In this document: positions 28,863 to 48,402 of the stretch, piece by piece
Layout of the letters: each line of letters begins with the position of its first letter
Numbering within the stretch: position 1 is the first letter of the stretch
Assembly (NCBI GenBank): GCA_963848135.1
Contig: CAWKCK010000017.1
Span: 1-64,000, forward strand
DNA length: 64,000 bases
Direction: 5' to 3'
DNA from: an uncultured delta proteobacterium
Lineage (GTDB): Bacteria > Desulfobacterota > Desulfobacteria > Desulfobacterales > SG8-13
Translations under genes and position numbers: made by a program
Notes under the pieces: model-generated
Seen by the model: only the letters and a program-made list of their open reading frames with translations
Told to the model about the DNA's origin: nothing
Database searches by the model: none

Positions 28863-29273
28863 ATGAAAAAACTATTATTGCTGACCTTATGCAGTTCTCT
28901 ATTAATTTTCGCAACCAATTCATTCTCTGAGTCCGATGAGATTTGCCGCACTTGGATAAATATGGATTACTCATCGGGCAACCCGCCCCAAAAACTTATT
29001 TTTAACTATGATGGCACATTTGCTGGTTACAATACCAAAACCTCAAATGACGCACTCAAAACGGGGATGTATACAATAACTAAAAAGTGGAATGATTCAG
29101 AAGGGAATATTTGGTACCAAATAGAAATGCAAGACCCAAAGTCTGAAACAAAGTACAAGCTGGCTAAAATTAGTGCTGATGGCAAAGTGCTCGAATTTAT
29201 CTGCAAGTCAGATAAGTATCCTGCTGATATATCGCCAAATGATAAAGCGTACTGTAGATATAGCCGGTATTAG
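28863..29273 (+). CDS. Hypothetical exported protein
   Basis: RBS AGGAGG, signal peptide MKKLLLLTLCSSLLIFA. Confidence 0.75.
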   Translation: MKKLLLLTLCSSLLIFATNSFSESDEICRTWINMDYSSGNPPQKLIFNYDGTFAGYNTKTSNDALKTGMYTITKKWNDSEGNIWYQIEMQDPKSETKYKLAKISADGKVLEFICKSDKYPADISPNDKAYCRYSRY

Positions 29274-29310
29274 AAAAGTAAAGTAAAATACGCGAAGATG
29301 TTCTTCATTC

Positions 29311-29595
29311 ATGTGGGTCGTAGCCAACGAGAATTGGGCAGCTGTGAAAATGCTGCTTAAAAATGAAATCACCGTAAATACGAAGGAATATTCAGGGTGG
29401 AATACTCTAATGAAATCTGTTTTTGCAGAGAACACCGAAATCGTAAAAACCATAATTGAAAATGGAGCAAACTTACATTCTAAGAACATTGGAGGGCTAA
29501 TGGCTTTAAGTATTGCTGAAGAACTCCATTTGCGACAGGAAATTTCGAGATTTCAATACCTCACCTTAAAGAGTGGCCATATTGTGGCGGCCTGA
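29311..29595 (+). pseudogene. Ankyrin-repeat fragment
   Basis: AVKMLLKN..VN....GWNTLM....TEIVKTIIENGANL ankyrin-like; no plausible start or RBS. Confidence 0.55.
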
Positions 29596-29633
29596 GATCG
29601 ATTCCTCACCTCGCTTCAGGAAAGGAGGACGCA

Positions 29634-29945
29634 ATGATTGTTAAAGTCCTGATCAAGAGAAAGATAAAGGAAGGCAAGACTCGGGAAGTATTTACATTGC
29701 TGAACAAATTCCGCTCGGATGCCATGAGTCAGAAGGGGTACATCTCCGGAGAATCGTTGATCAACCACGATAATCCGCAGGAAATATTAGTGATTGCTAT
29801 GTGGCAGGGAATTGAAAATTGGTTGAAATGGAAAGATAGCCCAAACCGGAAAGCCAATGAAGCCAATTTGAACCAGTGGTTGGAGGAGCCCACTATCTAC
29901 GATACCTATGTGCTGGGCACTTACTTCGCACAGTTCGAAAAATGA
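29634..29945 (+). CDS. Antibiotic biosynthesis monooxygenase (ABM)-family protein
   Basis: QKGYISGESL...VIAMWQ...W; RBS AGGAGG. Confidence 0.85.
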   Translation: MIVKVLIKRKIKEGKTREVFTLLNKFRSDAMSQKGYISGESLINHDNPQEILVIAMWQGIENWLKWKDSPNRKANEANLNQWLEEPTIYDTYVLGTYFAQFEK

Positions 29946-30120
29946 ACTTGGAGAGAAGACAGATATGCTGCGAGGTTATAATAATCATCGGTAAACCCCA
30001 AGCTTTGCTGGGGAGACTCCCAAAGTTTGACAGTTCCGGGAGTTCGCAGCGACCGGAAACGATGATTATTATAAAAGATACTAAGAAAACACCGAAAATA
30101 TTCAATTCACGCGCTTGGAC

Positions 30121-30178
30121 TTGCCATTATGTGGAAATCCAGCTTCTGGGTCTTTTATAAGGATATGATCTGGCTATC
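30121..30178 (+). repeat. Array site A (58-bp core)
   Basis: TTGCCATTA...GATATGATCTGGCTATC; ATAGCA at 30213-30218. Confidence 0.85.
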
Positions 30179-30336
30179 ATAGGCTTTTCAAAAATATCGA
30201 AACTTTCCTTAGATAGCAGCTAACGCGAGTCAGTCTGGCCTTATGCTTTGCTTTAGGTATCTGCAATTCAGTCGCGGGCCTGAGCAGCCGGGGGTGGCCC
30301 AACTGCTCAGGGTCCTTATTAGGGGCTAATCGGGCA

Positions 30337-31806
30337 TTAGGGTAATGTATTCTTGTAAATCTTCCCGTCCTTCATGATCACGACAAAGTTCTTGTCCGGA
30401 TCACCCACCAGGTCGAGGTTTTCCATTGGGTTTCCATCTACGATGATCAAGTCGGCATAGGCGCCTTCCTTTACCACACCAAGTCGGCCTTCCTGATAGG
30501 GGTGGCGGGGACCACTCATTTCCAATAACCGAGCATTTTCAGAGGTGGCTATTTTCAGCACTTCGTAGGGTGAAAACCATTTTCCTAATCGTACCAGGTA
30601 GTCGCTTTGTTGATGTGCCTTTGATGCATCAAGGAGTTGGTCGGTTCCAAAGGCAAGATTTACGCCCACTTTTTTGGCCAATGGGTACAATCTGTTCACC
30701 GCATCAACAACTTCTTTATACTTCGCTGCACTTATCGGATCGGCCCACTCCATGTCTTCTATTGCCATGGGCTGTGGACTAAGCCAGACTCCCTTTTCCT
30801 TCATCAGCTCCAAGGTTTCCTTTGATGCGAAAAACCCATGTTCAATGCACATGACCCCCGCTTCAACAGTCTTGCGGACCCCTTTGTCGTTCATCACGTG
30901 TGAGTGTACATAGGTGTTGTAGTTAGCGGCTTCCTCGACAATGGCTTTGATTTCATCCATCGAATATTCAAACACATCCAATGGGTCATATAAAGAAGAT
31001 ACCCCGCCGCCGGTGCAGATCTTGATCTGTGTTGCGCCGTATTTAAGAATGTCCCTGGTCCTCAGTCGAACTTCATCTACTCCGTCGGACGTCATGGACA
31101 TCATATTGCGTTCCCAATAGTTGGTAGTTGATTTGTCTCTTGGGGTCTCCAGCAGTCCGTAGTGGTCAGCATGTCCAGCGGTTGGACTCATAAAAGGACC
31201 GGAGGGAAGAATTCGGTGACCAGGATATTCCCCGGAATCGATCAATTTCTTGATGGCAAAGGGGTTGCCACCCGGGTCTCGTACCGTGGTGAATCCCCGT
31301 AAAAGCGTTTCTTTCGCTGCTGTCATACTGCGAATGGCCACTTCCGGCATATCGCCTTTATTCAGTAAAAGAATTGCGGCAGGCGTGGAGGCATAGGTCG
31401 TATGCCAGTGCGCATCGATGAGTCCGGGCATTAACGTACTGCCTTTTCCATCAATAACGTTGACCTTGACGTCTTTCTTGATCATTTTTTCAGGTTCGTA
31501 CACCGTTATGACCTGGTCTCCCCACCCTGGAAGATCATTGGGGAGGCCACCGGTCACTTCTTTATAACCACCAGTTTTCACGTCAATTTCATAAGTGCCT
31601 GCTAATTTGATGTCTTTATCGATCTTTTTAATCAGGTTTTTAACCACGAGCACATCGTAGCCCATCAAGAGCTCCTCACTCTGGCCATCAAAAATGTTGA
31701 CATTCTTTATCAGTGTTACCTCCGATGGGATGTCGACCGCCGCAGCCGGCAGGGCCAACATCACTACCATTGCCAGAATGCTCAAAACAGCAATTACGGC
31801 TTTCAT
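30337..31806 (-). CDS. Exported amidohydrolase (Xaa-Pro dipeptidase-like)
   Basis: Signal peptide; MPGLIDAHWH, GFTTVRD, IEHG, FGTD, GAYADLIIVDGNP. Confidence 0.88.
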   Translation of the reverse strand: MKAVIAVLSILAMVVMLALPAAAVDIPSEVTLIKNVNIFDGQSEELLMGYDVLVVKNLIKKIDKDIKLAGTYEIDVKTGGYKEVTGGLPNDLPGWGDQVITVYEPEKMIKKDVKVNVIDGKGSTLMPGLIDAHWHTTYASTPAAILLLNKGDMPEVAIRSMTAAKETLLRGFTTVRDPGGNPFAIKKLIDSGEYPGHRILPSGPFMSPTAGHADHYGLLETPRDKSTTNYWERNMMSMTSDGVDEVRLRTRDILKYGATQIKICTGGGVSSLYDPLDVFEYSMDEIKAIVEEAANYNTYVHSHVMNDKGVRKTVEAGVMCIEHGFFASKETLELMKEKGVWLSPQPMAIEDMEWADPISAAKYKEVVDAVNRLYPLAKKVGVNLAFGTDQLLDASKAHQQSDYLVRLGKWFSPYEVLKIATSENARLLEMSGPRHPYQEGRLGVVKEGAYADLIIVDGNPMENLDLVGDPDKNFVVIMKDGKIYKNTLP

Positions 31807-31937
31807 TGTTTTGAACTCCTTTGTTCGTTATAAATGGATGTTTTGGTTGTGATATTGAGCGTATATGTAAGATACGAAAGATTAAGATATATATAGATTA
31901 TGTTGAATATGTGAGACCGATCAATACTCGAACTTGC

Positions 31938-31995
31938 TTGCCAAAAGCTTAACCAGCAGAAATTACATTCAATATTCAGTTACGATCTGGCTATA
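31938..31995 (+). repeat. Array site B
   Basis: TTGCCA...GTTACGATCTGGCTATA, 58 bp. Confidence 0.85.
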
Positions 31996-32266
31996 ACATC
32001 TTTATTTTGCCGATAGCTGATACATTGGCCATTCTGTTCATTTTAGTTCGTTTCCCAATTCGAACGTGTTATTAGCCACTTATCATTTTCTTTAATCATG
32101 GAAATATAGTGCCGCAACCTCCATCCCCATTTCATAAAAGTCATAATTACCTCGGCAGATTCTTGGTTGATTACGATTTGTGGATTAAAAAATCGCCCCG
32201 TCAAATGATACTTTATGACGCTAATATGTATCAGAGGATGTTTATGATAAAGTGAGAAAATGCTTT

Positions 32267-32677
32267 TCATTTGGAGAATTTTTTAATCGCTTTGCCCTGA
32301 CCTATAACGAGTTTCTTGTCTGCGGATAAAGCCTTGACTGTTATTTCGTATGTGTGTTCAGTGCCAGGTGGCGGACAAGGTCCACTATAAGCTTTTAGAG
32401 TGCCTTCGGTTATAGTTGATATACCATTGTAGGTGACTTCACCTCCACCATGATCATAAGTCGGCATATCAAGGTCTATCATTGTCACTTTAAGATATTT
32501 TGTCTCTTCTGGTATGTCAGTAACTTTTATAGGTGGAGATATGCTAGAGCATCCTGACTTTTCTGTCCAGCCAAAATCAACAGCAAGTGTAGATGCTTGA
32601 TCTGAAACCGGCGTAGAGTTGCAACCAGCAAAAGCTAAGATGGCAAAAGCAATAAAGTATATCCTTCTTAGTAACAT
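32267..32677 (-). CDS. YbhB/YbcL (PEBP)-like lipoprotein
   Basis: Lipobox FAGC; ISPP, MIDLD, YSGPCPPPG..HTY. Confidence 0.8.
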   Translation of the reverse strand: MLLRRIYFIAFAILAFAGCNSTPVSDQASTLAVDFGWTEKSGCSSISPPIKVTDIPEETKYLKVTMIDLDMPTYDHGGGEVTYNGISTITEGTLKAYSGPCPPPGTEHTYEITVKALSADKKLVIGQGKAIKKFSK

Positions 32678-32825
32678 TGGACTCTCCTTTTGCTAATTTC
32701 GGCAACGGTTTTTTTCATATGCTTTTAAAAAGTTATCATCAAATAGTTTCTGTTAAATTTTCGACTCGTTAAACACCTTGTATAGCTGTTGCAAGATCCT
32801 GCAATTTGACCACAGTGCATGTACC

Positions 32826-32883
32826 TTGCCAGTAGACCAACTATATGAATTTACATCTTTTATACAAATAAAGTTTGGTAATC
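32826..32883 (+). repeat. Array site C
   Basis: TTGCCAG..CAACTAT...AAATAAAGTTTGGTAATC, 58 bp; TTGATAG at +18. Confidence 0.7.
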
Positions 32884-33237
32884 CTCACACAATTGGCTAA
32901 TTGATAGGTTTGATGGCTCATCGGCGAGCACATGTTCAATCAACATTGAGCTTTTTGGGAGAAGTCTTGCTATTTGGGGTCACTAAAAAAGATATAAAGC
33001 CAAGTATTTACCTATGGCTTTGCCAAAATTCATGATTATTTTGGAACAGATACCGTCAAACTTCAACACACTATGAGACGCCACCGGATGGTCTAAAAGC
33101 CTCCAACGGTCATTGTAAAAATAGGAAGTGTTTGACGGTATCAAAAAAGATCACAAATGTGTGTTCATATTTTCCGCCGTTACTATCGAATAAAATATAT
33201 TATTACGATAGGTTTGGGGGGTTATAGCAAGATACAT

Positions 33238-33280
33238 TTGCCGCAAATCACACCATATGAAACGATACGTTCTGGCTATC
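33238..33280 (+). repeat. Array site D (15 bp shorter core)
   Basis: TTGCCG...GATACGTTCTGGCTATC, then TCAAG...GATGATAG...ATAGCA (33315-33320). Confidence 0.8.
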
Positions 33281-33500
33281 TCAAGCGAATCGACTAGATG
33301 ATAGTTCAAAAATTATAGCAGCAGGTTTTTGTTCAGCTTATATGATGATACGTATACAATATCGCCGCTTTTGGGGGGCCTGATTTTTTACAGATACTAT
33401 AGGCGATATCACAGATTCGGCCAGAATTTGCATACGTTGGAGGTCTCGGCAAATTGGCATTGAATAATTATGCCAGAAGTCATGCGTTGGGATTACAGAA

Positions 33501-35051
33501 TTAATCCCTCACCGCTTTAAGCCTAAGCCTGTCGCCATAGGATCCAATAGTGCTGATTTCTGCATTTTCCCCCATGAATTTGATTTCACTACTAGTGCCT
33601 TCAGTATGCCCTACATTAATATAGGAAAACATAAAAGTATCATCGTATAACCAATCTCCTTTAAATGCGACTGTTTCCTCAGGCAATTCAGTTGTCCGAT
33701 ATACACCGTCTAAGCCAACCTCTACAGAATATGCCTTACCTTTTAAACTATATTCCATAATTGCTACACTATCCTTTAAAACAAAATCGAAGCTGATATT
33801 CTCAAAACCTGTCTCATTAGGTTCAATATTATATTTTACTCCGGAGATAATTTGAGAAATTGGAGGAAGGTCTGGAACGGAAAACGCTTGGGGTGATTTT
33901 GAATATTTTTCAACCAATTCATTTAACTGCGTATTTGCCGTTGTATTTTCTGGTAATGGCGAATCAGATTCAATTGCCCTGATGATATAATGAACAATTA
34001 AGGTGTCTGGTTTTCTAAAGGCTTTGAAGCTGGTAAACACGACCACCATATTATGTTTAGGAATAACGAAAATGCGTTGCCCGCCATATCCAGCAGCAGC
34101 ATAATAACCTGCCTCATCAACCCACCATTGATATCCATACTGGTCAAAAAGCGTGGCTGCAAGATAGCCTCTTGTTGATTCGGTAACCCATTCTTCTGAT
34201 ACTATGGTATTGCCTTGCCACTTCCCTTTATTTAAGAAAAGCAAGCCAAATCTGGCCATATCGTGTGGTTTCAACAACATTCTACCGTAACCCACGTCAA
34301 TACCCTGTGGGTTGGGTTCCCATTTTACATTGGTAATACCTATAGGTGTAAAAAGATTTTTCATTGCGAATTTATAGCTTCGCATTCCTGTGGTTTTCTG
34401 GATGATAGCGGACAAGAGGTAGGTAGCACCATTACAGTACTCAAAGTTTTGGCCGGGCGGTTCATTCATCGAAAGGTCAAGCATGTATTGCGTCCAATCA
34501 CTGCTTTGCCACATCTTTCTTAAACCTTGCCATCTATCCTTATAGGTGTCTCTACATTCCAATCCAGTTGCCATAGTAAGAATATTTTCAAGGGAAATGT
34601 TCTCTTTATCCTTTGTCAAGTTAGCAGGTGTAGTTTCAGGGAAAAACCCAAGAAGTCTTTGGTGAACACCTTTGATAAGACCTTTATCTATAGCTATACC
34701 GATAAGTGTTGAAGTAATACTTTTAGTACATGAATGGATAATATGGGCTTTATCTTTTTTGAATGGATAAAAGTAAGCATCTAAAACTATATAGCCGTTC
34801 CTTATTATGGTTACAGAATCAATAGTGTTTGGATATAATGCTAATCTTGAGAGCATATCTACCAATACCTCAGAGTTAATCCCCTGGGATTCTGGTGAAG
34901 ATGTGCGCCATGCCGCAGTTGGCCAATAGTCTTGCGACTCACTCGATGCAATTCCAAACGCTAAGCATATAAAGAACGGAACTCCACAAACAATAATCGT
35001 GTTCAAGATAAACCTGATTTTTCTATTAAAGTTATTTTTACTTCCAGACAT
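33501..35051 (-). CDS. Serine hydrolase (class C beta-lactamase / NylB-like family)
   Basis: HSCTKS (SxxK), FEYCN, DMARFG, YGYQWW, GYGGQ. Confidence 0.88.
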   Translation of the reverse strand: MSGSKNNFNRKIRFILNTIIVCGVPFFICLAFGIASSESQDYWPTAAWRTSSPESQGINSEVLVDMLSRLALYPNTIDSVTIIRNGYIVLDAYFYPFKKDKAHIIHSCTKSITSTLIGIAIDKGLIKGVHQRLLGFFPETTPANLTKDKENISLENILTMATGLECRDTYKDRWQGLRKMWQSSDWTQYMLDLSMNEPPGQNFEYCNGATYLLSAIIQKTTGMRSYKFAMKNLFTPIGITNVKWEPNPQGIDVGYGRMLLKPHDMARFGLLFLNKGKWQGNTIVSEEWVTESTRGYLAATLFDQYGYQWWVDEAGYYAAAGYGGQRIFVIPKHNMVVVFTSFKAFRKPDTLIVHYIIRAIESDSPLPENTTANTQLNELVEKYSKSPQAFSVPDLPPISQIISGVKYNIEPNETGFENISFDFVLKDSVAIMEYSLKGKAYSVEVGLDGVYRTTELPEETVAFKGDWLYDDTFMFSYINVGHTEGTSSEIKFMGENAEISTIGSYGDRLRLKAVRD

Positions 35052-35166
35052 TTTACCACCTTCAATTGAAAACTTGCGATATCTTAGAATATTAACAAAT
35101 TGCCCCAAAGTTGAGGTATGTAGATGTAATCTGTACTTTTCTGATGGGCTCAAGACTTTGGTCACC

Positions 35167-35224
35167 TTGCCATTAAATTGAATTTCCGATTCTGAGGATT
35201 TTTGTGAGATAAGGTTTGGCTATC
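35167..35224 (+). repeat. Array site E
   Basis: TTGCCATTA...GATAAGGTTTGGCTATC, 58 bp. Confidence 0.8.
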
Positions 35225-35274
35225 ACAGGTATCAGAATGCCTCAATTTCGTTATTATACTGGAGAGTCATCTGT

Positions 35275-35811
35275 CTACGCTTGTGAGGTACCGAATCCCC
35301 CTGACAACCAAAAAAACAAAGCGAAAAGGGCGGTCTGGACGATCCAGCCGATGAAACATACACCTACAGCTCGCCCGGTGCTTTTATAATCAAGCGCCTG
35401 CCTTACAGCAATGACCATAGCCACAAGCATCCAGATACCGACTATGAAATTGAGAATGGCCCCCAACATAGGGATTATTGCTAAAATTCGCAGAACTCCA
35501 GGAGAACTCGAGAACCCAATGGTGCGCAACAACTCCCCATAATCTGCTTTTGTTTGTGGCTCAGGTAATAGTCTGGTTCCGATATAATATGTCAGATACG
35601 CCCAGACAAACCATCCCACAAGAGCAACAAAAGTCCCGAAAATAAGGCCCTTTAACCCTGTAACGCTGATAGTTCCGATCCCCGCAGCAACGCTGGAGAG
35701 GATGACCACCCCCATGGCTTGTCCCATTGCTCCCTTGTCGGCCTCTACCTCTTCATAAAGGGTTACATCGAGCTTTGCTGCCCGTATCATACGATTTGTA
35801 ATTGATGCCAT
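35275..35811 (-). CDS. YIP1-family membrane protein
   Basis: YEEVEAD, LLRTIGFSSSPG, AVRQALDY; about 5 TMs. Confidence 0.8.
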   Translation of the reverse strand: MASITNRMIRAAKLDVTLYEEVEADKGAMGQAMGVVILSSVAAGIGTISVTGLKGLIFGTFVALVGWFVWAYLTYYIGTRLLPEPQTKADYGELLRTIGFSSSPGVLRILAIIPMLGAILNFIVGIWMLVAMVIAVRQALDYKSTGRAVGVCFIGWIVQTALFALFFWLSGGFGTSQA

Positions 35812-35977
35812 GACAACCTCACTTTACCATGCAGATTAGAATCTCAAGATTTAATTTGAAGTCATGTTTTTAATTAAAATGCCTTAAGGATCTATAGTTT
35901 TTTATGGTTAAATTGGCAATTGAAACAATACCAATGATGATAATACTAAGTGCGGTTGGGTCAATATTTGTGAGACC

Positions 35978-36035
35978 TTGCCACAGGTCCAACTAACGGT
36001 AAGCGCACAATCTGTAAAGATATTATCTGTCTAAC
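35978..36035 (+). repeat. Array site F
   Basis: TTGCCACAGGTCCAACTA...GATATTATCTGTCTAAC; GATGATAAC and ACAGCA (36070-36075) extension. Confidence 0.8.
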
Positions 36036-36168
36036 TCAAGCAAATCGGCCGGATGATAACTCAAAGGTCACAGCAGGTGTTGTAAGATTCAACGCCATTC
36101 TAAAGGCCGCATTATATTGTGGTAATGTTGAAGCAGAATTGGAATACTTCGGCCGCAGAACTTAATGT

Positions 36169-36843
36169 TTACTCTTCTATACACCCCTTCTGTGAGAGAA
36201 TTTTGTCAAATCCATAAATCTCTATAATTGACTTACCTTCACGAATCTGGTCCATCACTCTTTCTTCTTTGCTTGCTCGCTCTTGTGCTGCTTGAACCAC
36301 TTCTGAAGCCTCTTTCCTTGGTATTACTACGACTCCATCATCGTCGCCGGCCACGATGTCTCCAGGATAAATGATAATGCCACCGAAAGCGATTGGTTGA
36401 TTGATGCTTCCAAGCGTATCTTTCACTGTTCCCTTGATCGAATGCCCCCGTGAAAAAACTGGGAAGCTCATGTTTTTAATAGCCAGACCATCCCTAACCG
36501 AGCAATTTGTCACAAATCCAAGGATTCCCCGGACCTTTGCAGATAGGGATGTAATCTCGCCCCATCCGTCTATTTGGTCTGAATCTCCCATATCAGCCAC
36601 TATCACATCACCTGGCTTGGCAACATCTATGGCCTTTAGAAGCATAAGATTGTCTCCGGCATGGCAATGAACGGTGATAGCCGGGCCGCATAGTCGCATA
36701 CCACTGTAAAGCGGCTTTATCCCGGCGTCTACAGCACCACGGCGCCCCATGGCTTCATGCAGGGTGGCAACGTCCTGCTGACTCACTGAGGATACTATAG
36801 TTTCCTCCGGTCGACGAATATGATAAATCACATGCGGTATCAT
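36169..36843 (-). CDS. RraA/HMG (4-hydroxy-4-methyl-2-oxoglutarate) aldolase family
   Basis: ATLHEAMG, GDNL, WGE, VRD, PGDIVAGDDDGVVVIP. Confidence 0.88.
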   Translation of the reverse strand: MIPHVIYHIRRPEETIVSSVSQQDVATLHEAMGRRGAVDAGIKPLYSGMRLCGPAITVHCHAGDNLMLLKAIDVAKPGDVIVADMGDSDQIDGWGEITSLSAKVRGILGFVTNCSVRDGLAIKNMSFPVFSRGHSIKGTVKDTLGSINQPIAFGGIIIYPGDIVAGDDDGVVVIPRKEASEVVQAAQERASKEERVMDQIREGKSIIEIYGFDKILSQKGCIEE

Positions 36844-36989
36844 TATTATCCTTTCCTTAATTGATCAGACATCCGGGCTTTTTTTGAGGTTTCAAACCCA
36901 TACCAGAATGATTCAGGTATTATTCAGTTTGATTTGAAATGACGGACCGTGGCGCGGTGTAATATAGGTGCTCTCCAATTGAATGTATC

Positions 36990-37047
36990 TTGCCACACAA
37001 ACAAGTATCGGAAATCGCACTAAATATGACGATACGATGTGGCTATC
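36990..37047 (+). repeat. Array site G
   Basis: TTGCCAC...TATCGGAAAT...GATACGATGTGGCTATC, 58 bp. Confidence 0.85.
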
Positions 37048-37182
37048 ATGAAAATAATTCTTTTGAAAGCATTGTGCTCACAGTACAAAGTATATAACGC
37101 TGCTTGTCAATATTAAGTCAGCTTCAGACGCCAATTCCTATGTAACAGCTCTCCTGACACAGGGGGCAACTCGTTATTCGAT

Positions 37183-37482
37183 TCACCTTTTATGCATGTC
37201 AATAATTTTGATTTTCTCGTCATTATTTCCTTTTACGTTTTTAATTTTTGTAAGCAAGTGTGGTGAAACATTCCATTTATGTCCAGATTCGGTAATTATA
37301 GTTACCGTTTTTTTATTGTACTTAACCAAAGTGCCGAATTGCTTACCTCGACCAGGCGCTTCAAAACATATCTTATCCCCCGGACTGAACTGCATCATTT
37401 CTTTGTGGGTATGCATTGAATCTAAGAACTTTAACCTTTCAACTATCTTTTGATTCAATTCAACAAGTTCGTCATAACTCAT
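37183..37482 (-). CDS. Small hypothetical protein
   Basis: 99-aa ORF occupying one array interval; reading frame extends upstream (KIDIDS) to an ATA. Confidence 0.65.
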   Translation of the reverse strand: MSYDELVELNQKIVERLKFLDSMHTHKEMMQFSPGDKICFEAPGRGKQFGTLVKYNKKTVTIITESGHKWNVSPHLLTKIKNVKGNNDEKIKIIDMHKR

Positions 37483-37546
37483 GGAATCAATGTCAATTTT
37501 TATAATTCACATCTCGACATGTTCTTGCTTAAATGAAATTTAGGAT

Positions 37547-37601
37547 TTGTCGCCCTCATCATCGAAATTGGCGTTGAAACTGAATATACGATCTGAATAT
37601 C
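37547..37601 (+). repeat. Array site H (immediately upstream of integrase)
   Basis: 32/35 identity to site L over ATCGAAA.T.GCGTTGAAACTGAATATACG.TCTG. Confidence 0.8.
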
Positions 37602-37660
37602 ATTGATTTACCTCGGGATTTCCCCGGATGTCAAACATCAACAACCAAAGGGGGTAAACC

Positions 37661-38478
37661 ATGAAAGTGTCCAAAGCCGCGAGAATCTGGATCGATTCCC
37701 ACAAAGCCCACTCGGAAAAAAAATACCGTTCGGTCCTATTGGTCAGTTATTGAACGATTCTGCCGTGAGTTCGGTGATGCTGAGATTGAACAGGTTACAC
37801 CGGATGATGTCCTTTCCTTTCTGAACAGCTATACCAACGGTAACAAGCCCTAAACAAAGCGAGTCCGTTATTCCCACCTGTCCGCCTTTTTCAATTTTTT
37901 CCGCAATAACGTCGACCCCGACATAGGCAATCCGTGTGACACACCCATGATCCGAAAGCTTTATCGGGAAAGGGTGGTATCAAGATGGAAAATCATCGAA
38001 AAAGAGACCGTTGACGAGATCATTTTCCGGACTACCAAAATTCGCAATCGATTGATGCTTGAACTGATGGCCCGTGGGGGGATGAGGGTTGGTGAGGTGC
38101 TGAAACTCAGATTGAATGACATTCAGGATCGAAAGCTGATCCTGCGAGAACCGAAGAGCGGGAAAGAACATATGATTTTTTTTATTCCACAAAAGGTGGC
38201 TGATAGACTCCGTGACTACGCCTCTCAGACTTGTAATAGACCAGATGACCGCATTTTCCCGATTACCTATGCAGCAGCCAGGCTGGTTGTAATAAAAGCA
38301 GGAAAGATGGTTGGGATCCACCTGAGACCGCATGACCTGCGGCGACATTCGGCAACCTATGCCCCTCGATCTGGAGTGCCAATCGAAATAGTGAGCAAAA
38401 TCATTCTCCGTCACGCCAATCTGGCAACCAATCAGCGATACAGAGGCGATGAGGTGGATTGAAAACCTACATTGTTAA
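37661..38478 (+). pseudogene. Tyrosine recombinase/site-specific integrase pseudogene
   Basis: GGMRVGEV, KSG, HDLRRH, LRHANL..QRY motifs; A8 frameshift at 37716-37723, in-frame TAA 37851-37853, C-terminal tail in +1 frame. Confidence 0.9.
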
Positions 38479-38526
38479 TGCAAAAAGGGGTGAACCCCAA
38501 TTTGAGTGTCACCCCCTATACTCCAT

Positions 38527-38583
38527 TATGCGATGTGTTTATATCAAGGAAATCGACCGCATGATAACTCACGGATCATAGCA
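38527..38583 (+). repeat. Right half of an array site downstream of integrase
   Basis: TATGCGATGTGTTTATA-TCAAGGAAATCGACCGCATGATAACTC...CATAGCA matches the extensions of sites D/F/J; no TTGCCA box. Confidence 0.7.
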
Positions 38584-38720
38584 GGTATCAAAGCTCCCGA
38601 GTCGATGATGCGCTTCCGAATAATTTACTTTTTAGGCTTTGACTTTTTTGCCCTTCAAGGTATCTTCACATTGAGTTGTGCATTGGAAAACCGGTCTTAA
38701 ATACAATATAGTTAAAAACG

Positions 38721-38754
38721 AAAAAAGGCAGAGCTTATAATAACTCTGCCTTTT
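38721..38754. terminator. Intrinsic terminator-like hairpin
   Basis: AAAAAAGGCAGAG...CTCTGCCTTTT. Confidence 0.6.
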
Positions 38755-38791
38755 AAATATACCACCGAGCAGAAAGGGAGTAACGCTCCGC

Positions 38792-39223
38792 CTATTCTTT
38801 CCCTGCTCCTGCCGGGATGTTGTCAATTACCATGATATCCTGCGTTCCTTCAAATGCCTCTTCACCCGTAGTGAACCCAATTAATGTCAGTGTATTATAG
38901 TCGCCTATGATCAGTCCTTCCAATGTTTTTATTTCATCTGACACGAACTTGGCAACAAAGTTACCCCGATCATCAGATTTCCACCATTCGATTGCAACAC
39001 CGTTGAGAAATACAGACGCTCCAGTCACTAAATAATAGTCGATGTCGGTATGAACAGTGACAATAGCACTTTCACTCTGAATGTTGAGGACATTCGGAGA
39101 AACATCAATCTCGATCTCGATGTCAAAGCCATAACATTTTGCAGGCGCCTGAAAAAACACCAGGGCAAGGACCATGCAACACACCACGGGCAAACAAAGG
39201 GTTTTCGCTTTTCTTAGATCCAT
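38792..39223 (-). CDS. Hypothetical exported protein
   Basis: Signal peptide, RBS AGGAG, acidic beta-rich mature part. Confidence 0.75.
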   Translation of the reverse strand: MDLRKAKTLCLPVVCCMVLALVFFQAPAKCYGFDIEIEIDVSPNVLNIQSESAIVTVHTDIDYYLVTGASVFLNGVAIEWWKSDDRGNFVAKFVSDEIKTLEGLIIGDYNTLTLIGFTTGEEAFEGTQDIMVIDNIPAGAGKE

Positions 39224-39914
39224 TTTTTCTCCTGTCAAGATATTAAAGGTTATTGATAAGTCGCCAGCTGTTATTCATCCATCCAATCCTGGTTTAGTTA
39301 AGATATAAACGTATTGATCAAAAAAAGGTTACAATTTTATTACAAAAAAATAAGAGTAGCCTCTTTAGCCTTTTTCTCAGCTCCTTTCGGTTGAATTCCA
39401 TCGGTGCTGTGGTTCACGTATTTGAAGGCCTCTTCGCCTGAGTTTAACAGTTTTTACGAAACGAACGAACCCTTGAATTTGCAAAAATAATCACGCAAAG
39501 AGCGGTGTAAGCTTCTTGGAATTCCTGCTTGATCAGGTGATAAGTCAAAAGATTACTAATGGGGTTAAAAGCTACCCGACATGTAGTAGTTTAAAGACGC
39601 TATCAGCTGAAATTTAGTGTCGGGTGGGAAATGACCCCCTTAGTAAGTCAAATATTTTATGGTTCAATTCTGAAAACAAATCAGAGGGAGCCCGTTTTTT
39701 TGTTAGATTTTCAGCTTTGTCACTGTCGGTGTTCGTCCTGCAAGGGATCGAGGGTAATAAGCTGGTCGGAGAGTTTCAAAGGACGGGATAGAGGTTGGGA
39801 GCCGCAAAAATGCATGCTTTGGATAAAAAAGACAGATAAATTGAGACCGGACTTCGACCAAAATTATGATATGCTCGAAATCAGCCGCAAATTTGACGCA
39901 GTTATGATTACAGA

Positions 39915-39972
39915 TTGCTAGTTTCGTAACTATCTTAAATTGAATCAATTATATTGATACGGTCAGGATAGA
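39915..39972 (+). repeat. Array site I
   Basis: TTGCTAGTTTCGTAACTATC...GATACGGTCAGGATAG; GATGATAG and ATAGCT (40007-40012). Confidence 0.8.
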
Positions 39973-40209
39973 TCACGTAATTCCGCAGGATGATAGGTGC
40001 GAGACCATAGCTGATAATTTACATAGCCTGATTTGCGATTAATCGGTGTTGGAAATACATCGGAGCGCGTCTTAATTTGCGCTTTGGTTTGCCAATTGAG
40101 TCAATGTTCAAAATGCGAACATAAATCTTCATAAGAAAATATTTTACTGCACACAAACCTGCCCTTTGCCGAGGAACCCGCCTCAAACCAATGCCAATAT
40201 CAGGGGTAA

Positions 40210-41661
40210 CTACTTCATTCCACCCAATCGCAGTGTTTTGAAAATTTTGCGAACGAAAATATAAACCCTCCAAATGGGCTGATGCGGAAAGAACAATTTA
40301 AAAACTACGCTTGTTGCCTCCAATATCACTTGAGGGTATTGTGACTTATCATTGTAAATCAGGAAATTGGGATGGCGGTGGTAGGCGCGCTTGGCGATTT
40401 TTTTAATGGTTAGAATGTCAAGTGCCATAGGTTCAAAGTGCACCGGGTACAGGAAGTTGTCTTTGATCCTATCTCGGTTCGTTTGCTGTAATTTCATGGC
40501 GAGCGGTGCACCTTTGTAAACACGGATGCCGACGCCGATGACCACAAGGTCCCATGGTGAAGCCGCCTCGGCTATGGTCTCAAACGTTTCTTGGAGCGTA
40601 TCTTCCGTTTCACCCGGCGCACCCAGGAGTAAAAACCAAGACGTTGGTATTTTTGCCTGTTGCAATAGTTTCCCGGCCTTCAGTACATCCTCTTTCTGAA
40701 AATTCTTTCCCAAATTGAGTAACGTCTGGTTGCAGCCGGATTCTACTCCCAAATCAACGTCCTGAAAACCAACCTGTTTCATAAGCTCCACCAGTTCTTC
40801 GTCAACCGCTGAAGGGTTCAGACCCAAAGCCCGGCACCGCAGATTTAGACCTTTGACGGCTATGGCCCGTAAAACCGCTTTCGTATGCTCCAGCGGGATG
40901 TTGAATGTACTGTCAGTGAATTCGATTTGGCGAATGCCTGTCTCATATACCAGTGTCTCCACATCATTTGCCACACGCAGCGGATCTTTAAGACGGTAAA
41001 CACTGCCTTCAAGCCGTTTGTAGGTGCAGTAAACGCATCTTAGGGCACAGCCACGTTTGGTCTGGACCTGAATCGGTGAGTTGTATTTACGGTAGCGCCG
41101 TATGTCGATGTAACGGGCAAATTTTATTGATGGCAAGGCATTCATATCGGTAACCGGCAAAGGCGGATTTTCTTCGACTATCATGCCATTCTGTCTTAAA
41201 ATCAATCCGCCCAGACCACTCAGAGGTAAATTCTTTTCCAGCCTCTCAGACAATTCTACCATTGACCGCTCACCGTCGCCTTGAATAGCCAGGGTGAGGT
41301 TAAAAAAATGCAGTATTTCCGCACCACTAATGCCAACCGCGGCACCGCCGATGACAATCGGGCCTTCAAAGGCCGATTTCAGTGGATCGATCACTTCAAT
41401 CTTTACCTGCTCGATAAAAAAAATGGTATTGTATCCAGAGGCGTTGTCGATGTTGCGGATGCCGACTCCGACTATATCTGGTTTGAACTTGCTGAGCGCG
41501 AGGCGGATTTCTAGATCAGTATTTTTTGAAAAACATAGATCCAGAAAAACAACGTCATGTCCCGCGTCTTCCAGAGCTGCGGCAACCGCGCACAGACCGA
41601 AAGGTATTACGGGCCATGGATGCTTGAGCCGATTAGAGTTGATCAACAGTATATTCATCAC
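40210..41661 (-). CDS. B12-binding domain radical SAM protein
   Basis: N-terminal cobalamin-binding domain (IRNID, IGG), KRGCALRCVYC, DSTFN, GAPGET. Confidence 0.9.
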   Translation of the reverse strand: MMNILLINSNRLKHPWPVIPFGLCAVAAALEDAGHDVVFLDLCFSKNTDLEIRLALSKFKPDIVGVGIRNIDNASGYNTIFFIEQVKIEVIDPLKSAFEGPIVIGGAAVGISGAEILHFFNLTLAIQGDGERSMVELSERLEKNLPLSGLGGLILRQNGMIVEENPPLPVTDMNALPSIKFARYIDIRRYRKYNSPIQVQTKRGCALRCVYCTYKRLEGSVYRLKDPLRVANDVETLVYETGIRQIEFTDSTFNIPLEHTKAVLRAIAVKGLNLRCRALGLNPSAVDEELVELMKQVGFQDVDLGVESGCNQTLLNLGKNFQKEDVLKAGKLLQQAKIPTSWFLLLGAPGETEDTLQETFETIAEAASPWDLVVIGVGIRVYKGAPLAMKLQQTNRDRIKDNFLYPVHFEPMALDILTIKKIAKRAYHRHPNFLIYNDKSQYPQVILEATSVVFKLFFPHQPIWRVYIFVRKIFKTLRLGGMK

Positions 41662-41714
41662 AAACTTCTTTCGGAATCAGCCTGATGAATTGAAGTAAAA
41701 AAAATGGCTTGAGC

Positions 41715-41772
41715 TTGCCACAGGTTCAACTATCTGAAATCAGGCCAATTGTGACGATACGACCTGACTATC
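41715..41772 (+). repeat. Array site J
   Basis: TTGCCACAGGTTCAACTATC...GATACGACCTGACTATC; TTGATAGCC and ATAGCA (41807-41812). Confidence 0.85.
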
Positions 41773-41891
41773 TCAAACGGATCAACCAGTTGATAGCCTA
41801 AAGATCATAGCAATGTTATGAAATTCAAACCCTCGTTATGAGCTGCTGCTGTGACTGCTTCTTCCAAAAACACGATATAACTGATCTGCAA

Positions 41892-42191
41892 TCAGATATC
41901 CAAAATTTCAAAAACCTGCTCGTTCACAGGCTTCGTTTTGTCCATCCATGTTTCACGAATGCTGCGAACAAGTGTCTGGTAGGTTCCGGACTCCTTGTTT
42001 TTATAATTGTCCAGATCTTCAATAGTCCTGAAGTGCATTATAGCTCCATATAGAGATGAATCAGTTTTGGAACGGATAAATTCCAAATGCCTCATTCCCT
42101 TGACACCACGAAGCTCTAATGCACTAGTTTGCATCCAACGCTCGGCATCTTTGCCGTCTAATGCATGGTATGTGACCAATCGAAAAATCAT
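41892..42191 (-). CDS. Small ABM-like (dimeric alpha/beta barrel) hypothetical protein
   Basis: 99 aa, RBS AAGGAGG, ABM-like pattern. Confidence 0.65.
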   Translation of the reverse strand: MIFRLVTYHALDGKDAERWMQTSALELRGVKGMRHLEFIRSKTDSSLYGAIMHFRTIEDLDNYKNKESGTYQTLVRSIRETWMDKTKPVNEQVFEILDI

Positions 42192-42354
42192 TCGATATAC
42201 CTCCTTTTCAATCTTGAATAGAAACCAAAATTAGGCAGCAAGTGCAAGGATTTATTGGGCGGCTATCAAGCCCTCAATCTATCATATGATCCAGGTGCCT
42301 TGTGTTATATTGGGGGTAACTTCAATAATTGGCTCTTGTCAAACCATGGGTTAC

Positions 42355-42411
42355 TTGCATTATTTGAAAATTCACCTTACGAAGATTTTATAAAGATATG
42401 ATTTAGTTATC
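42355..42411 (+). repeat. Array site K
   Basis: TTGCATTAT...TTTTATAAAGATATGATTTAGTTATCAC, close to site A. Confidence 0.8.
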
Positions 42412-42503
42412 ACGGGATATCATATCTAATTCAATTTTTCTCAATATGTGATACTTTCTCTTATTTCCAGAGGATATACGTCTTGAAATTTTATCTGTCC
42501 GAC

Positions 42504-44510
42504 CTATGAATCGTCTTCACGTTTTTGCGATGGCGGTTTGCGATCGCTCTCCTCTTCGTCGTCCGGCTCGGCGGAGAGCCGCTCGGACGTTTCCCACACC
42601 TGCGACTCGAAAGTGCCGGCCTCGACCGAGCCCCGCGGCGGATAGTCGAGAGTACCTTTGAGCTGCTCAATTCTGTCGGCCGCAAGTCTTGGAAACGGCA
42701 GCTTGCCGGCTTTGCGCCAAGATGCAACTTCTTTCGCAGCCGTCTCGCCACGCTCACCGTCGAGTCCGTCGTCGCGACCCATGTAGAGGGTCTGTGACGG
42801 AAAGGCAAAGCTGCTTCCCGATTTTTTAACTATATCGCTCATTCGCAGCAAGACGTCTTCGCGTATGGCGTGGAATTCGTTGAAGTCCTGGGTCAGTGCA
42901 TATATCCGGACGCCAATGTCGAGGGAGGATTCACCGAAGTCTGCCAAGCGCACGCGCACCGTGTCGGAGTGGATCTTGGGATGGGCATGGAGCATCTCGC
43001 GAAACTTCACCAGCACATGGCGCAATTGATCATTTTCGGTCTCATAGCGGAGACCGATGGTCGCGCTGATCAGCATCCGATCGCATTTCGCCCAGTTGAT
43101 CAGCTGCATATCTGCGAGGGCGGCGTTGGGAACCGAAATCAAAGTGCGATCGAGCGCCCGGATCTTGGTCGTGCGCACGCCGATGGTTTCGACGGTGCCG
43201 GTTTTGTCACCGAAAGAGCAGAAATCCCCGATCCGCACGGGCTGGTCCAGATAGAGCATGATGCCGCCGATCAGGTTTTCGAGAGTCGGGCGAATCGCAA
43301 GCGCAACTGCCAAACCGCCAATACCTAGTCCAGCCACAACGCTATAGAGAGGCAGTCCCAGCTCCTGTGCTGCATTACCGATGATCACGACGCTGACCGC
43401 GGTCCCGAGTGTACGGGCACCAATTCGCCAGAGTTGCGCGTCGAAGCTACCTTCCGGGATACCCCGTGCCTGAATGATGCGCTCGAAAATGGCGAGCATG
43501 ACCAGCCATAAAAGCCAGACTGCGCCGGCATTAATCAAAATGGTTGCCATATCGGCAACCACGGCCCAAAATGCGCCTGAAACAAAGATTTGGTTGTCAA
43601 TGAAATCCTTTAGGCTCCAGACCACCACGAGGATCGCAATCGGCGTCAGGGCATGACGCAGCAGGAAGCCGACTCGATTTTCGGTTTCGCGGCGATTGAT
43701 CGCACGGTGAAAGAGGAACAGCAGGAGCGTTGCGAGAGCACTAAGGAGGACCACCGCAATGACTTTCCATTTTGGTGTATCCAGCCAGAAGTCGCGCAGA
43801 CTTTGCGGTACGATTCTGAGCACCGCCGCCGGGATCATCGGTCCGGTAATCTGGCGCATAGCGAGATGCCAGCTAATGATGGGCAAAGACGTTTGCAGAG
43901 GCAGATCTTTAATACCTTGGTAGAAACGCGGCGCCACCATAACCGTGCTCTCGCTGAACAGAAACTCTCCCTCGCGCGCTCCCTTATCGGCCTGGACGAT
44001 CCAGATCGGGGTGTCGGGGATGCGCCATTTCGCGGGTGACACACCATCGTCGAAGGCCTCTTCGTCAGGAATACTTTCTATGTTAGGCAATTCGACACGC
44101 CCAAGGATGTCGAGCAAATATGCACTTGTTTCGGTTCCGATCTCATCGCGAAGCGATTGCGGGACAGAGGACAAGTCTAGCAGCTCGTGGAACTGAGAGC
44201 TAATCACGTGCACCTTCTCGGCAAGTTCACGGGATTTGTCCAATCTATAGGATCGCAATGTCTGTTCCAGCTCGTCCCTGAGGCGGAGAAACGATTTGAG
44301 CGTGGCACGCGGGCTGTCCGTTAGGATGGGTCTGAACGTGGGCTTACCGCTGGCAGTCTGCTGCGTCCCCGTGGGCGTGTTCTCCCCGACTGATTTGGTT
44401 TCTGTCGTTTCCTGGGCGTGAATGGAAGTGGCGGCGCAGCAAATCAGGACGAGGGCAAGCCACCACCGTAAGGCGGTGGGGTAATCGAATTTCGAGTACA
44501 AAGTAAACAC
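42504..44510 (-). CDS. MscS-family mechanosensitive channel with periplasmic N-terminal domain
   Basis: AGLGIGGLAVALA, LENLIGG, IGDFC, GTVETIGVRTTKIR, FAFPSQT. Confidence 0.92.
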   Translation of the reverse strand: MFTLYSKFDYPTALRWWLALVLICCAATSIHAQETTETKSVGENTPTGTQQTASGKPTFRPILTDSPRATLKSFLRLRDELEQTLRSYRLDKSRELAEKVHVISSQFHELLDLSSVPQSLRDEIGTETSAYLLDILGRVELPNIESIPDEEAFDDGVSPAKWRIPDTPIWIVQADKGAREGEFLFSESTVMVAPRFYQGIKDLPLQTSLPIISWHLAMRQITGPMIPAAVLRIVPQSLRDFWLDTPKWKVIAVVLLSALATLLLFLFHRAINRRETENRVGFLLRHALTPIAILVVVWSLKDFIDNQIFVSGAFWAVVADMATILINAGAVWLLWLVMLAIFERIIQARGIPEGSFDAQLWRIGARTLGTAVSVVIIGNAAQELGLPLYSVVAGLGIGGLAVALAIRPTLENLIGGIMLYLDQPVRIGDFCSFGDKTGTVETIGVRTTKIRALDRTLISVPNAALADMQLINWAKCDRMLISATIGLRYETENDQLRHVLVKFREMLHAHPKIHSDTVRVRLADFGESSLDIGVRIYALTQDFNEFHAIREDVLLRMSDIVKKSGSSFAFPSQTLYMGRDDGLDGERGETAAKEVASWRKAGKLPFPRLAADRIEQLKGTLDYPPRGSVEAGTFESQVWETSERLSAEPDDEEESDRKPPSQKREDDS

Positions 44511-44651
44511 AGTGATCTCCTCTGTGGACCAATAAAATCATGTTGTTAATATTACGAAAGTGCTGATATATTGAGTTATCTTGTTTCAGAGAAAAGTTAT
44601 GATATGCTCTAAATTTACCTCAAAATTGAAAGATTCCTGGCGGTAGATTTC

Positions 44652-44709
44652 TTGCCAGTCTCGTAACTATCGAAAATAGCGTTGAAACTGAATATACGGT
44701 CTGGCTATA
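44652..44709 (+). repeat. Array site L
   Basis: TTGCCAGTCTCGTAACTATC...TATACGGTCTGGCTATA, 58 bp. Confidence 0.85.
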
Positions 44710-44740
44710 ATATGTAATCCAACGAGCTGCTTTTCTCTTT

Positions 44741-45562
44741 TTATAGTCGCCACGTGATTCTAGGTACATTCCGGATTGGCATGCGTTGATATCGATACTT
44801 TGGATATCCAACCATCATGGAACCAAATGCCTTGTGATCTTCGGGCAGATTTAAGGCCTTTTCCATAGGCGGAAAAGTAGTTGCAGCCGCATTAAAATAG
44901 CCTGCCCAACAGGCCCCCATTCCCAATGTGGTTGAGGCCAATTCCAAGTAAGTCAGTGCGATGTTACAGGCTGCTGGTGCCACACGATTTTCTTTATGGG
45001 CGTGGGCGACTATGACCGCCGGCGCATCTCTAAGAACGACATCATAACCATTCTCATATCGATCTACGGTCCGATCCATATGCATGGACGAGGCAACATC
45101 CGACATATTGGTCAACATCCAGCGCATCCATTCCACCACAATTCCTGAAAGGCGCTTCAACTCCGCCTTATCACCCAAGACCAACCATTCAACCGGCTGT
45201 AAGTTATGGCCGCTGGGAGCATACCGTGCGATATCGATAAGCTTATTCAGATCAGCTTTATCAACAGATTTGTCTTTATACTGACGAATGGAACGTCGGC
45301 TCCTCAAAAACTGTTCGGTTTGTTCGACAGTAATCCTGAGTTCTTTTACTATCGGCGTGCAGCTCTCCAATGGAATATCTACATGGGTAAGACTCGCTGT
45401 GGGGCAAATCGCCACACAATGTCCACAACGGATGCATAGTTCATCAGCGTCATCGATAGGAACGGGTTCTCCCTTTACAAGCTCTATAATACCAGCGGGA
45501 CAAACAGCAGCGCAGATTCCATCTTGATTACACGTTTCATGATTAACAGTAATAAGGTCCAC
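44741..45562 (-). CDS. Nitroreductase with N-terminal 4Fe-4S ferredoxin domain
   Basis: CIRCGHCVAICP; RRSIR, APSGHNLQP; GTG start after AAAGGAGG. Confidence 0.9.
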   Translation of the reverse strand: MDLITVNHETCNQDGICAAVCPAGIIELVKGEPVPIDDADELCIRCGHCVAICPTASLTHVDIPLESCTPIVKELRITVEQTEQFLRSRRSIRQYKDKSVDKADLNKLIDIARYAPSGHNLQPVEWLVLGDKAELKRLSGIVVEWMRWMLTNMSDVASSMHMDRTVDRYENGYDVVLRDAPAVIVAHAHKENRVAPAACNIALTYLELASTTLGMGACWAGYFNAAATTFPPMEKALNLPEDHKAFGSMMVGYPKYRYQRMPIRNVPRITWRL

Positions 45563-45805
45563 AATGCCTCCTTTCAATTATGCAGAAGACGTAAATTACC
45601 AACTCAAACAGAGAATATTTCGGATCTATACACAGCGTCCAATATTAATGCGCAATGGAATCGAAAGACCTTCTCATTTTAGGGACTCACCGGTTTTGTA
45701 TGCGCAATCATTTATGACGCTCCGCATAGTAGCACTTGATGTAAATACTTTTTTAGATGTCCAAAATCGAGAGGGACTTTTCGGATAGATGATTTCACAC
45801 CCCAA

Positions 45806-46300
45806 TCAATCAGATTTTGGGCTTTGATTTTTGTGACCGAACCACTTAGGCAGATTATCATTTATATCAATAACCCGCATACCATAGAAAATATGGCACG
45901 TTGGTTTGAATTTCGTTGGAACTCTTGATACACCCCCGAAATTGAAAAGTGATGGAAACGCAAGCCACATTTTACGTCCTTCATCGGCAATAAGAGTGCC
46001 ACACAAAGCACAACTTACTTTGCAAGGTAGAATTCTCTCGTGTTTGTTTAGTTCATTGTTGTAAAAGTTTAGATGATCAATGCCTTCAGTAATTCTGACA
46101 TCATGTTTATGAAATATAGCTGCCCATTGCATAGGAGCCCCATGCAGTTTTTGACATGCCAAACAATGACATATTTTTGCATCTACAGGATCCGAGCATA
46201 CTTCGTATTTTACCGCATTGCAGTAACAACTTGCCCGGTATTTGGCTCTAAAATTAACGTCTGAAATCGACGCATAATTTGATCCAAATTCTTTTTTCAT
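45806..46300 (-). CDS. GFA (CENP-V/Mss4-like) family protein
   Basis: SCYC, CHCLACQK, CALCG, CHIFY. Confidence 0.88.
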   Translation of the reverse strand: MKKEFGSNYASISDVNFRAKYRASCYCNAVKYEVCSDPVDAKICHCLACQKLHGAPMQWAAIFHKHDVRITEGIDHLNFYNNELNKHERILPCKVSCALCGTLIADEGRKMWLAFPSLFNFGGVSRVPTKFKPTCHIFYGMRVIDINDNLPKWFGHKNQSPKSD

Positions 46301-47236: not shown

Positions 47237-47445
47237 TTTCTTCTCTATTCAATCTGAATTGCCCCACTACTTATCGACAAGACAGCAGGATCGCCTCTTA
47301 ATTTCCATTTCTTGAATAATAAAGGTAAATTTCATTCATTAGTTAAAATTATAGCGCTCATTAAATCAGCCGAAAATCGCTTTCTGAATAGCAAATGAAT
47401 CTCCCTTCAGCAAACTACAGGGTATCAAAACTGATTGATTTTATC

Positions 47446-48385: not shown

Positions 48386-48402
48386 GCAAAGTAAATACCT
48401 TC

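Follow-up and report, generated by a model that had tools for sequence, protein, structure and literature searches.

A family of co-oriented, fixed-length repeats in the genome of an uncultured delta proteobacterium (Desulfobacterales; SG8-13) probably represents the recombination sites of an integron-like gene-cassette system that is made of other parts. The repeats lie in a stretch of 64,000 nucleotides, hereafter the window, at the start of contig CAWKCK010000017.1 (C17) of assembly GCA_963848135.1 (6.03 Mb; G000). An original prediction had read them, together with a small tyrosine recombinase gene among them, as a distinct platform for gene capture and shuffling, and as far as sequence can test it, that reading is supported. 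The repeats occur in arrays, cassette borders fall at a short core at the beginning of the site, cassette order is shuffled between genomes, and a Xer-like recombinase gene is linked to the sites.

Results

Sites and arrays

Twelve co-oriented sites had been predicted in the window, nine of them exactly 58 bp long. An nhmmer profile trained on nine window copies recovers all 12 places, and the nine of constant length hold up as ungapped full-length matches, starting at 30120, 31936, 32824, 35165, 35977, 36989, 39915, 41714 and 44651. Two further sites are partial, at 33243 (central part 15 bp shorter) and 37560 (left half degenerate), and a weak one at 42356 (E 7.9) has a core with a 1-nt deletion. 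Read on the plus strand, the site carries CTTGCCA at positions 2–8 and AACTATC at about 16–22, followed by GAAAT, GATACG and TCTGGCTATC at 51–60. The conserved unit exceeds 58 bp, as many sites are followed by a distal extension of about 40 nt that ends in CATAGCAG. Three related 8-mers, near positions 2–9, 52–59 and 96–103, and repeated CTATC/GATAG boxes are candidate binding boxes for the recombinase. Bases immediately to the left of the core are part of the adjacent cassette and yet show partial conservation, with C at −1 in 113/118 sites and also W at −3, Y at −4 and T at −10. Taken literally, the consensus string has no exact match, as it is a consensus; its 17-mer right block has eight matches with up to three mismatches, all on the plus strand and all at sites noted earlier, where shuffles lead one to expect 0.10. 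With a strict degenerate pattern, only 12 of some 71 sites were recovered and too few were counted in the relatives, so profiles took its place.

Counting profile hits at E ≤ 0.05, the genome holds 71 sites; R1, a sequence-only Infernal model of the site that was used to scan the genome, its congeners and other taxa, finds 73. These sites are not a motif spread genome-wide in front of core genes: they form nine arrays of 3–18 sites, plus single sites, and within every array all are co-oriented. Inter-site units, measured from one site start to the next, number 123 (60 in G000 and 63 in four congeners, the latter at 20 loci), with a median length of 1.8 kb. The largest open reading frame (ORF) runs opposite to the site in 101 of these units, which places the site 3′ of the gene; it has the orientation of the site in 20, and the other two lack an ORF of at least 60 residues. 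Usually a cassette is one gene, with the fixed-length site of about 60 bp some 30–270 bp downstream of it. Annotated recombinase and transposase genes in the G000 arrays run in site orientation. Outside the window, the arrays carry genes for a Na/H exchanger, Ni-SOD, methyltransferases, PIN, OmpA, OYE, MFS, AhpC, WD40 and enoyl-CoA hydratase proteins, and for many proteins without a family. A c-di-GMP-I riboswitch recognised by Rfam lies inside a cassette of the array on contig C5 (L009:11533-11647).

Copy number varies widely within the genus, from 0 to 73 R1 sites among 16 genomes: 14 of 15 congeners have between 1 and 60 each, and one has none. Beyond the genus, sites were found by R1 in one of four genomes from three other genera of the family, and Desulfosarcina genomes hold only a few each. 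Separately, three places in G000 (C18:452911-453943, C18:591053-592085 and C1:221780-222812) share a repeat of 1033 nt (up to 1920 nt) at 100% identity, which begins at +85 to +94 of two sites.

Cassette borders and order

Comparison of all 123 units, all against all, gave 14 shared pairs at 85–99.9% identity. Homology reaches to within 0–3 nt of the next core in 11 of these, and five of the 11 also begin at positions 1–2 of their own site, so that whole core-to-core units are shared (G000 with G015, with G016 and with G017, two G000 arrays with each other, and two G017 arrays with each other). Gapped alignments place the end of identity immediately before, or inside, CTTGCCA, which assigns the site to the 3′ end of its right-hand gene in plus-strand terms. 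The 7-bp core is thus CTTGCCA, and the cassette border is the very start of the site.

Shared units have homologous neighbours in none of 14 testable comparisons, and in none of 12 when two pairs of IS-like repeats are set aside. Two units that are adjacent in G016 sit on separate G000 contigs, C17 and C1, and the C1 array terminates in a bare GCTTGCCA at the place where G016 has its next site. Gene order is thus not fixed in the relatives, as cassettes common to several genomes have different neighbours.

These borders bear directly on another explanation, namely that the repeats are a REP-like (repetitive extragenic palindromic) or regulatory intergenic element, located in 3′ untranslated regions or serving as promoter-operators, which homologous recombination re-assorts and on which the recombinase and the mobile elements described below (an IS110-family element and a two-recombinase element) merely land. 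We consider this rather unlikely. The account is consistent with a sigma-70-like module (TTGACC, 16–17 nt, TATAGT; consensus matches) that abuts the junction, in gene direction, at 9 of the 71 sites, with several homology borders that fall inside or after the site (+24 to +146), with the persistence of sites in genomes that have no recombinase, and with the preference of IS110-family elements for conserved repeats, known from the parts of the literature consulted. It sits poorly with cassette 5′ borders that coincide sharply with the 7-bp core in 11 of the 14 pairs, and with a site that moves with the 3′ end of the upstream gene instead of with the promoter that it precedes. Nor would it predict that one array ends in a lone core, or that distant taxa retain the core in front of the recombinase gene. 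The sites also show no base-pair covariation, no terminator-like T run and, at Rfam gathering scores, no match to any family, the window yielding only two tRNAs. A promoter and terminator scan returned seven promoter-like sites against 4.4 expected, which is not significant as a whole.

A second crossover point may lie at +48, in a GATAC-7-CTATC palindrome near which the recombinase module and some shared units break; most cassette borders, however, lie at the core. Among public reads, no run contains more than 0.20 of the words. A metagenome contig (run X1, one contig, side 43) joins the 5′ flank of the MscS cassette to a recombinase module, and in run X3 the same flank meets the site at 31936 across a gap of 25 unmatched letters. 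Both contigs are single, of low depth and of 90% likeness; they are compatible with other neighbours in nature and were not used as evidence.

The recombinase and its linkage to the sites

The tyrosine recombinase predicted inside the array is present by homology, with an ORF that carries the Phage_integrase catalytic domain, but the copy in the window proved to be a pseudogene (37704..38462, plus strand; catalytic-domain ORF 37947-38462), in which homology extends over 37704-38447 with one internal stop and the C-terminus is lost. The usual form of the family has 278 residues. Its best NCBIfam match is archaeal XerA (XerA_Arch, NF040815), which at 118.5 bits stays below the cut-off of 220, as do the matches to the XerD (53.8 versus 329.6 bits) and XerC (51.6 versus 335 bits) models. 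IntI was not expected from the original prediction, and this is borne out: the IntI model TIGR02249 scores 52.9 bits against a cut-off of 265, aligning only at profile positions 20–177, its N-terminal half, and none of 31 genome matches is above the cut-off. The closest solved structures are those of XerA, 4a8e and 5hxy, and no IntI structure is found among the solved relatives at E ≤ 0.001. The IntDes group, which according to passages of PMC8138268 carries an arm-binding domain and is confined to Desulfovibrio, is therefore a different group.

All seven recombinase loci of G000 follow a site, in every case of one subtype. The recombinase module is conserved over about 1065 bp, with homology from position 0 of the site to about +1065, where it ends in the distal extension; the gene is therefore embedded in a site, and its reading direction is that of the site and leads away from the cassettes 5′ of it. 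Among the sites listed for congeners, one is directly upstream of at least five of nine recombinase matches. The family comprises at least 575 loci among species representatives, in Desulfosarcina variabilis, D. widdelii, Syntrophobacterales, Desulfatiglandales, contigs labelled Nitrospirota and Acidobacteriota, and others. R1 places a site just upstream in 13 of 80 recombinase loci from other taxa. Of 71 loci, drawn from diverse Desulfobacterota and from other taxa, 32 contain exact CTTGCCA within the 230 nt that precede the gene, with a cluster between −93 and −128, compared with 46 of 1278 control windows (3.6%). The co-occurrence of integrase and site that had been proposed as a check thus extends across many taxa. 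The cultured D. widdelii has a compact arrangement, in which two sites enclose about 2 kb with minus-strand ORFs of 254, 161 and 155 residues, and the recombinase gene comes after the second site. The leaders of the recombinase genes, at 37604-37650 in the window and in others, contain a short palindrome, CGGGATTTCCCCG, and, on the opposite strand, a perfect TTGACA; judged by these motifs, the leader could hold an operator or an outward promoter directed towards the cassettes.

Comparison of the sites with attC

The ends of attC sites follow the consensus RYYYAAC ... GTTRRRY and are not matched here, where the ends are CTTGCCA and CTGGCTATC. Folded as single-stranded DNA, the 12 window sites do no better than shuffles (z −1.28 to +1.14); over all 71 sites the mean minimum free energy is −4.1 kcal/mol, with mean z of −0.41 and −0.53 on the two strands. 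Column-pair analysis of the sites found no covarying helix, and attC-like folding and covariation are thereby ruled out. The only inverted motifs that are invariant in the site are 3–4 bp long: GCCA (5–8) with TGGC (53–56), and TATC with GATA. The earlier impression that attC features are not evident was accordingly correct, and the site is a sequence-defined element of fixed length that is not attC-like.

It is scarcely credible, then, that the sites are very divergent attC and the locus a classical integron or an attC cluster lacking an integrase (CALIN). The array layout, the position of a site 3′ of each gene, the divergent integrase beside a primary site and the short GCCA/TGGC inverted repeat at the site ends all recall such a system. 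The sites form neither a hairpin nor a covarying helix, however, and their ends depart from the attC consensus; on the enzyme side, the IntI score lies far below its cut-off, no genome hit passes, and the solved relatives are archaeal XerA.

Elements inserted in the core

Two kinds of mobile element use the core as their place of insertion. The first, 2.1 kb long, combines a pair of adjacent tyrosine recombinase genes with perfect terminal inverted repeats of 15 bp and is present in G000 at C5:47124-49268, C17:1219868-1222009 and C18:549337-551483. CTTGCCA flanks it on both sides in all three copies, and it always lies immediately left of a cassette site. Inverted repeats together with flanking CTTGCCA are the signature of a tyrosine-recombinase element with a 7-bp overlap equal to the core, and by its sequence the element has the appearance of a mini integrative element aimed at the cassette core. 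The second is a 1.55-kb IS110-family element (DEDD transposase, 339 residues) with at least seven copies in G000, for example at L010:3515-4534 (transposase), C5:43060 and C18:590959; it sits between CTT and GCCA in all six copies whose ends were read. A group II intron had been considered as the site-inserted element and is ruled out in favour of this IS110-family element. A parallel exists in integrons, where IS1111-attC elements insert in attC. Another two-recombinase repeat, of 2175 bp and 99.95% identity, lies near a site at C18:608214-610388 and C1:235039-237213.

The 2.1-kb element raises the question of which enzyme acts on the sites. The cassette system, or a process of accretion, could be real and the catalyst be this two-recombinase element or the host Xer proteins. 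The same 7-bp core flanks the element, its copies are 96–99% identical and it has therefore been active recently, and most of the 278-residue copies in G000 are decayed. We nevertheless think this quite unlikely: the 15-bp arms of the element are unlike the cassette sites, it has only three copies, its protein is only 24% identical to the 278-residue protein, and it is without the family-wide linkage to sites that is seen for the 278-residue family.

The array and its island in the window

The genes between the window sites lie on the minus strand and are functionally unrelated; all sites are on the plus strand. Site 1 (30119..30180, core at 30120-30126) is the last site and marks the left end of the array. 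It is followed by an amidohydrolase gene (Amidohydro_1; 30337..31806), site 2 (31936..31997, a profile match) and a PEBP/YbhB family gene (32267..32677), whose unit also holds a 75-residue ORF downstream (32043-32270). Site 3 (32824..32885) begins a unit, 32824-33220, without an ORF of at least 60 residues. Site 4 (33221..33320) is degenerate, its central part 15 bp shorter, and has a distal extension; a gene for a serine hydrolase of beta-lactamase fold (33501..35165) separates it from site 5 (35165..35226, a profile match). The Yip1-domain membrane protein gene that follows (35275..35811) has an 85% identical copy in the C17 array at 1.24 Mb, and at the 5′ end of its cassette, adjoining the junction, lies a candidate sigma-70-like promoter, TTGACC-16-TATCAT (35937..35964, minus strand; consensus match only). 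Next come site 6 with its distal extension (35976..36075), a gene for an RraA-like/aldolase protein (36169..36843), site 7 (36988..37049, a profile match) and a gene for a hypothetical protein of 99 residues (37183..37482), which is the first cassette left of the recombinase.

Site 8 (37542..37603), proximal to the recombinase, has a degenerate left half and no intact core; a promoter-like TTGAAA-18-TATCAT within it (37574-37603; consensus match only) points at the recombinase gene. A distal site extension (38508..38583, plus strand) closes the recombinase module. Beyond it are a gene for a predicted exported protein of 148 residues without a Pfam family (38792..39238), site 9 (39913..39974) with the core variant ATTGCTA, a B12-binding radical SAM enzyme gene (40210..41661) and site 10 with its distal extension (41713..41812). 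The gene at 41892..42191 encodes a hypothetical protein of 99 residues. Site 11 (42353..42414) is the weak site mentioned above, and between it and site 12 (44650..44711) lies the gene of a MscS-type mechanosensitive channel (42504..44510); over positions 0–48, site 12 has the same sequence as recombinase-proximal sites in other parts of the genome. The predicted gene content was therefore largely confirmed, for the amidohydrolase, PEBP/YbhB, beta-lactamase-fold hydrolase, Yip1, RraA-like, B12-radical SAM and MscS genes. The call of an ABM gene failed: the ORF so named, 41892-42191, has no Pfam hit at E ≤ 0.01, and the true ABM gene is outside the array, at 29634-29945 on the plus strand.

To the right of site 12, three minus-strand genes without recognisable sites between them occupy 44741..47236, encoding a Fer4-nitroreductase (44741-45577), a GFA protein (45806-46300) and a pyridoxamine-oxidase-like protein (46625-47236). 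A lone CCTTGCCAG in site orientation (47598..47606, plus strand) may close the array as its terminal core; the window has 15 occurrences of CTTGCCA where 9.06 are expected, however, so that one lone copy is not above chance and proves nothing.

The array lies within a variable island of low GC content (28310..48305; 19,996 bp) between trkA and tRNA-Glu, with a GC fraction of 0.38–0.52 compared with 0.48–0.55 in the flanks. The right boundary is formed by tRNA-Glu(ttc) and tRNA-Lys(ttt) (48308..48478, minus strand), and no direct repeat of the tRNA-Glu 3′ end was found at the far side of the island. Two trkH/trkA pairs flank it, at 25092-28223 (trkH plus, trkA minus) and 48855-51668 (both minus). 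The congener G012 has only about 940 bp between trkA and the tRNA-Glu region, and there (L128/L129, 2100-2800 oriented) five tandem repeats of about 125 bp, each with a 3′ part of tRNA-Glu, take the place of the 20-kb island. The sequence of these repeats suggests repeated integration and excision at tRNA-Glu.

Discussion

In the mechanism that we propose, strand exchange at the core would be the work of the 278-residue Xer-like tyrosine recombinase. A cassette between two direct cores would be released as a circle by recombination between them, and the circle could enter any core by the reverse reaction; arrays of co-oriented cassettes would grow through repeated insertion. Because the sites have no hairpin potential and the enzyme is Xer-like, the reaction would most likely take place on double-stranded DNA.

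Several observations weigh against this interpretation. The shared pairs that do not follow the core-to-core pattern have their left border at +24 to +146, and sites and genes can therefore also come together by other routes, of which homologous recombination is a possible one. The relatives used for comparison belong to other species, with trkA 74–89% identical, and no recombination product, circle or strain-level presence and absence was seen. Another recombinase could be the catalyst. An uninterrupted frame is found in only two of the seven G000 copies, over residues 19–277, with residues 1–18 not in frame. G012 has 53 sites and only a 43-residue remnant of the recombinase, which means either that arrays can persist without the enzyme or that the assembly misses it, and G018 has seven sites and no recombinase. 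Dyad symmetry around the core is weak, at 4.84 of 14 positions compared with 3.0–4.4 in shifted registers, 4.95 with permuted partners and 3.67 at random genomic occurrences of CTTGCCA, so that a classical two-arm core site is not evident.

With integrons, the arrays share co-oriented, mostly single-gene and functionally unrelated cassettes, a site 3′ of each gene with the border at its far end, and some arrays that exist without a recombinase. As in the intI/attI layout, the recombinase gene reads away from the adjoining cassettes and a primary site stands before it. The definition of the integron rests on IntI and folded attC sites, whereas here the enzyme is Xer-like, of 256–278 residues and without the IntI signature, and the sites are conserved, of fixed length and without a hairpin, with the core CTTGCCA. 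The recombinase gene, moreover, lies inside arrays, embedded in a site and in several copies per genome, and some cassettes appear, from consensus matches, to carry a conserved promoter of their own.

A simple Xer-type tyrosine recombinase is also the enzyme of Xer/dif, of pdif modules and of archaeal XerA/dif, and in pdif modules, as here, short sites bound small gene modules that re-assort. Sites of the Xer/dif and pdif type have about 28 bp, with two inverted 11-bp arms around a spacer of 6–8 bp, and the pdif modules of Acinetobacter plasmids depend on the host's XerC/D and have sites that alternate in orientation. The sites described here measure about 60–105 bp, are all direct within each of the nine arrays and are linked to a dedicated recombinase gene. 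Archaeal XerA differs in that the match to its model falls below the cut-off. Accreted integrative elements and cis-mobilizable elements (CIMEs) offer a further likeness, in that direct att-like repeats flank the units, one unit has an integrase beside its att, and others have none and would be moved in trans. Unlike CIMEs, however, the units here are gene-sized, number dozens per genome in many arrays and carry no transfer or replication genes, and their target is the site of the previous unit and not a tRNA or housekeeping gene.

To our knowledge, no other well-described system stockpiles and shuffles single-gene cassettes as integrons do. We put it at an even chance that the arrays described here represent a second, independently evolved capture system of the integron type, with a Xer-like recombinase, sequence-defined sites of about 60–105 bp ending in a 7-bp core, single-gene cassettes and probably a reaction on double-stranded DNA. 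Such a system would extend across the Desulfobacterota, with relatives of the recombinase in contigs labelled Nitrospirota and Acidobacteriota; it would comprise 50–70 cassettes in some genomes and have its own core-targeting parasites, the IS110-family element and the two-recombinase mini-element. The literature consulted (search listings, the beginnings of abstracts and passages of PMC8138268) contains no description of a system of this kind.

Cultured Desulfosarcina species carry a small version of the arrangement, which makes the idea directly testable, and the recombinase, the site of about 60 bp and its 7-bp core together form a compact candidate tool for site-specific recombination. If the interpretation is correct, tools built on the IntI/attC definition would miss such systems, cassette-based adaptation would be broader than thought, and the arrays would provide a handle on the flow of accessory genes in sulfate-reducing sediment bacteria.

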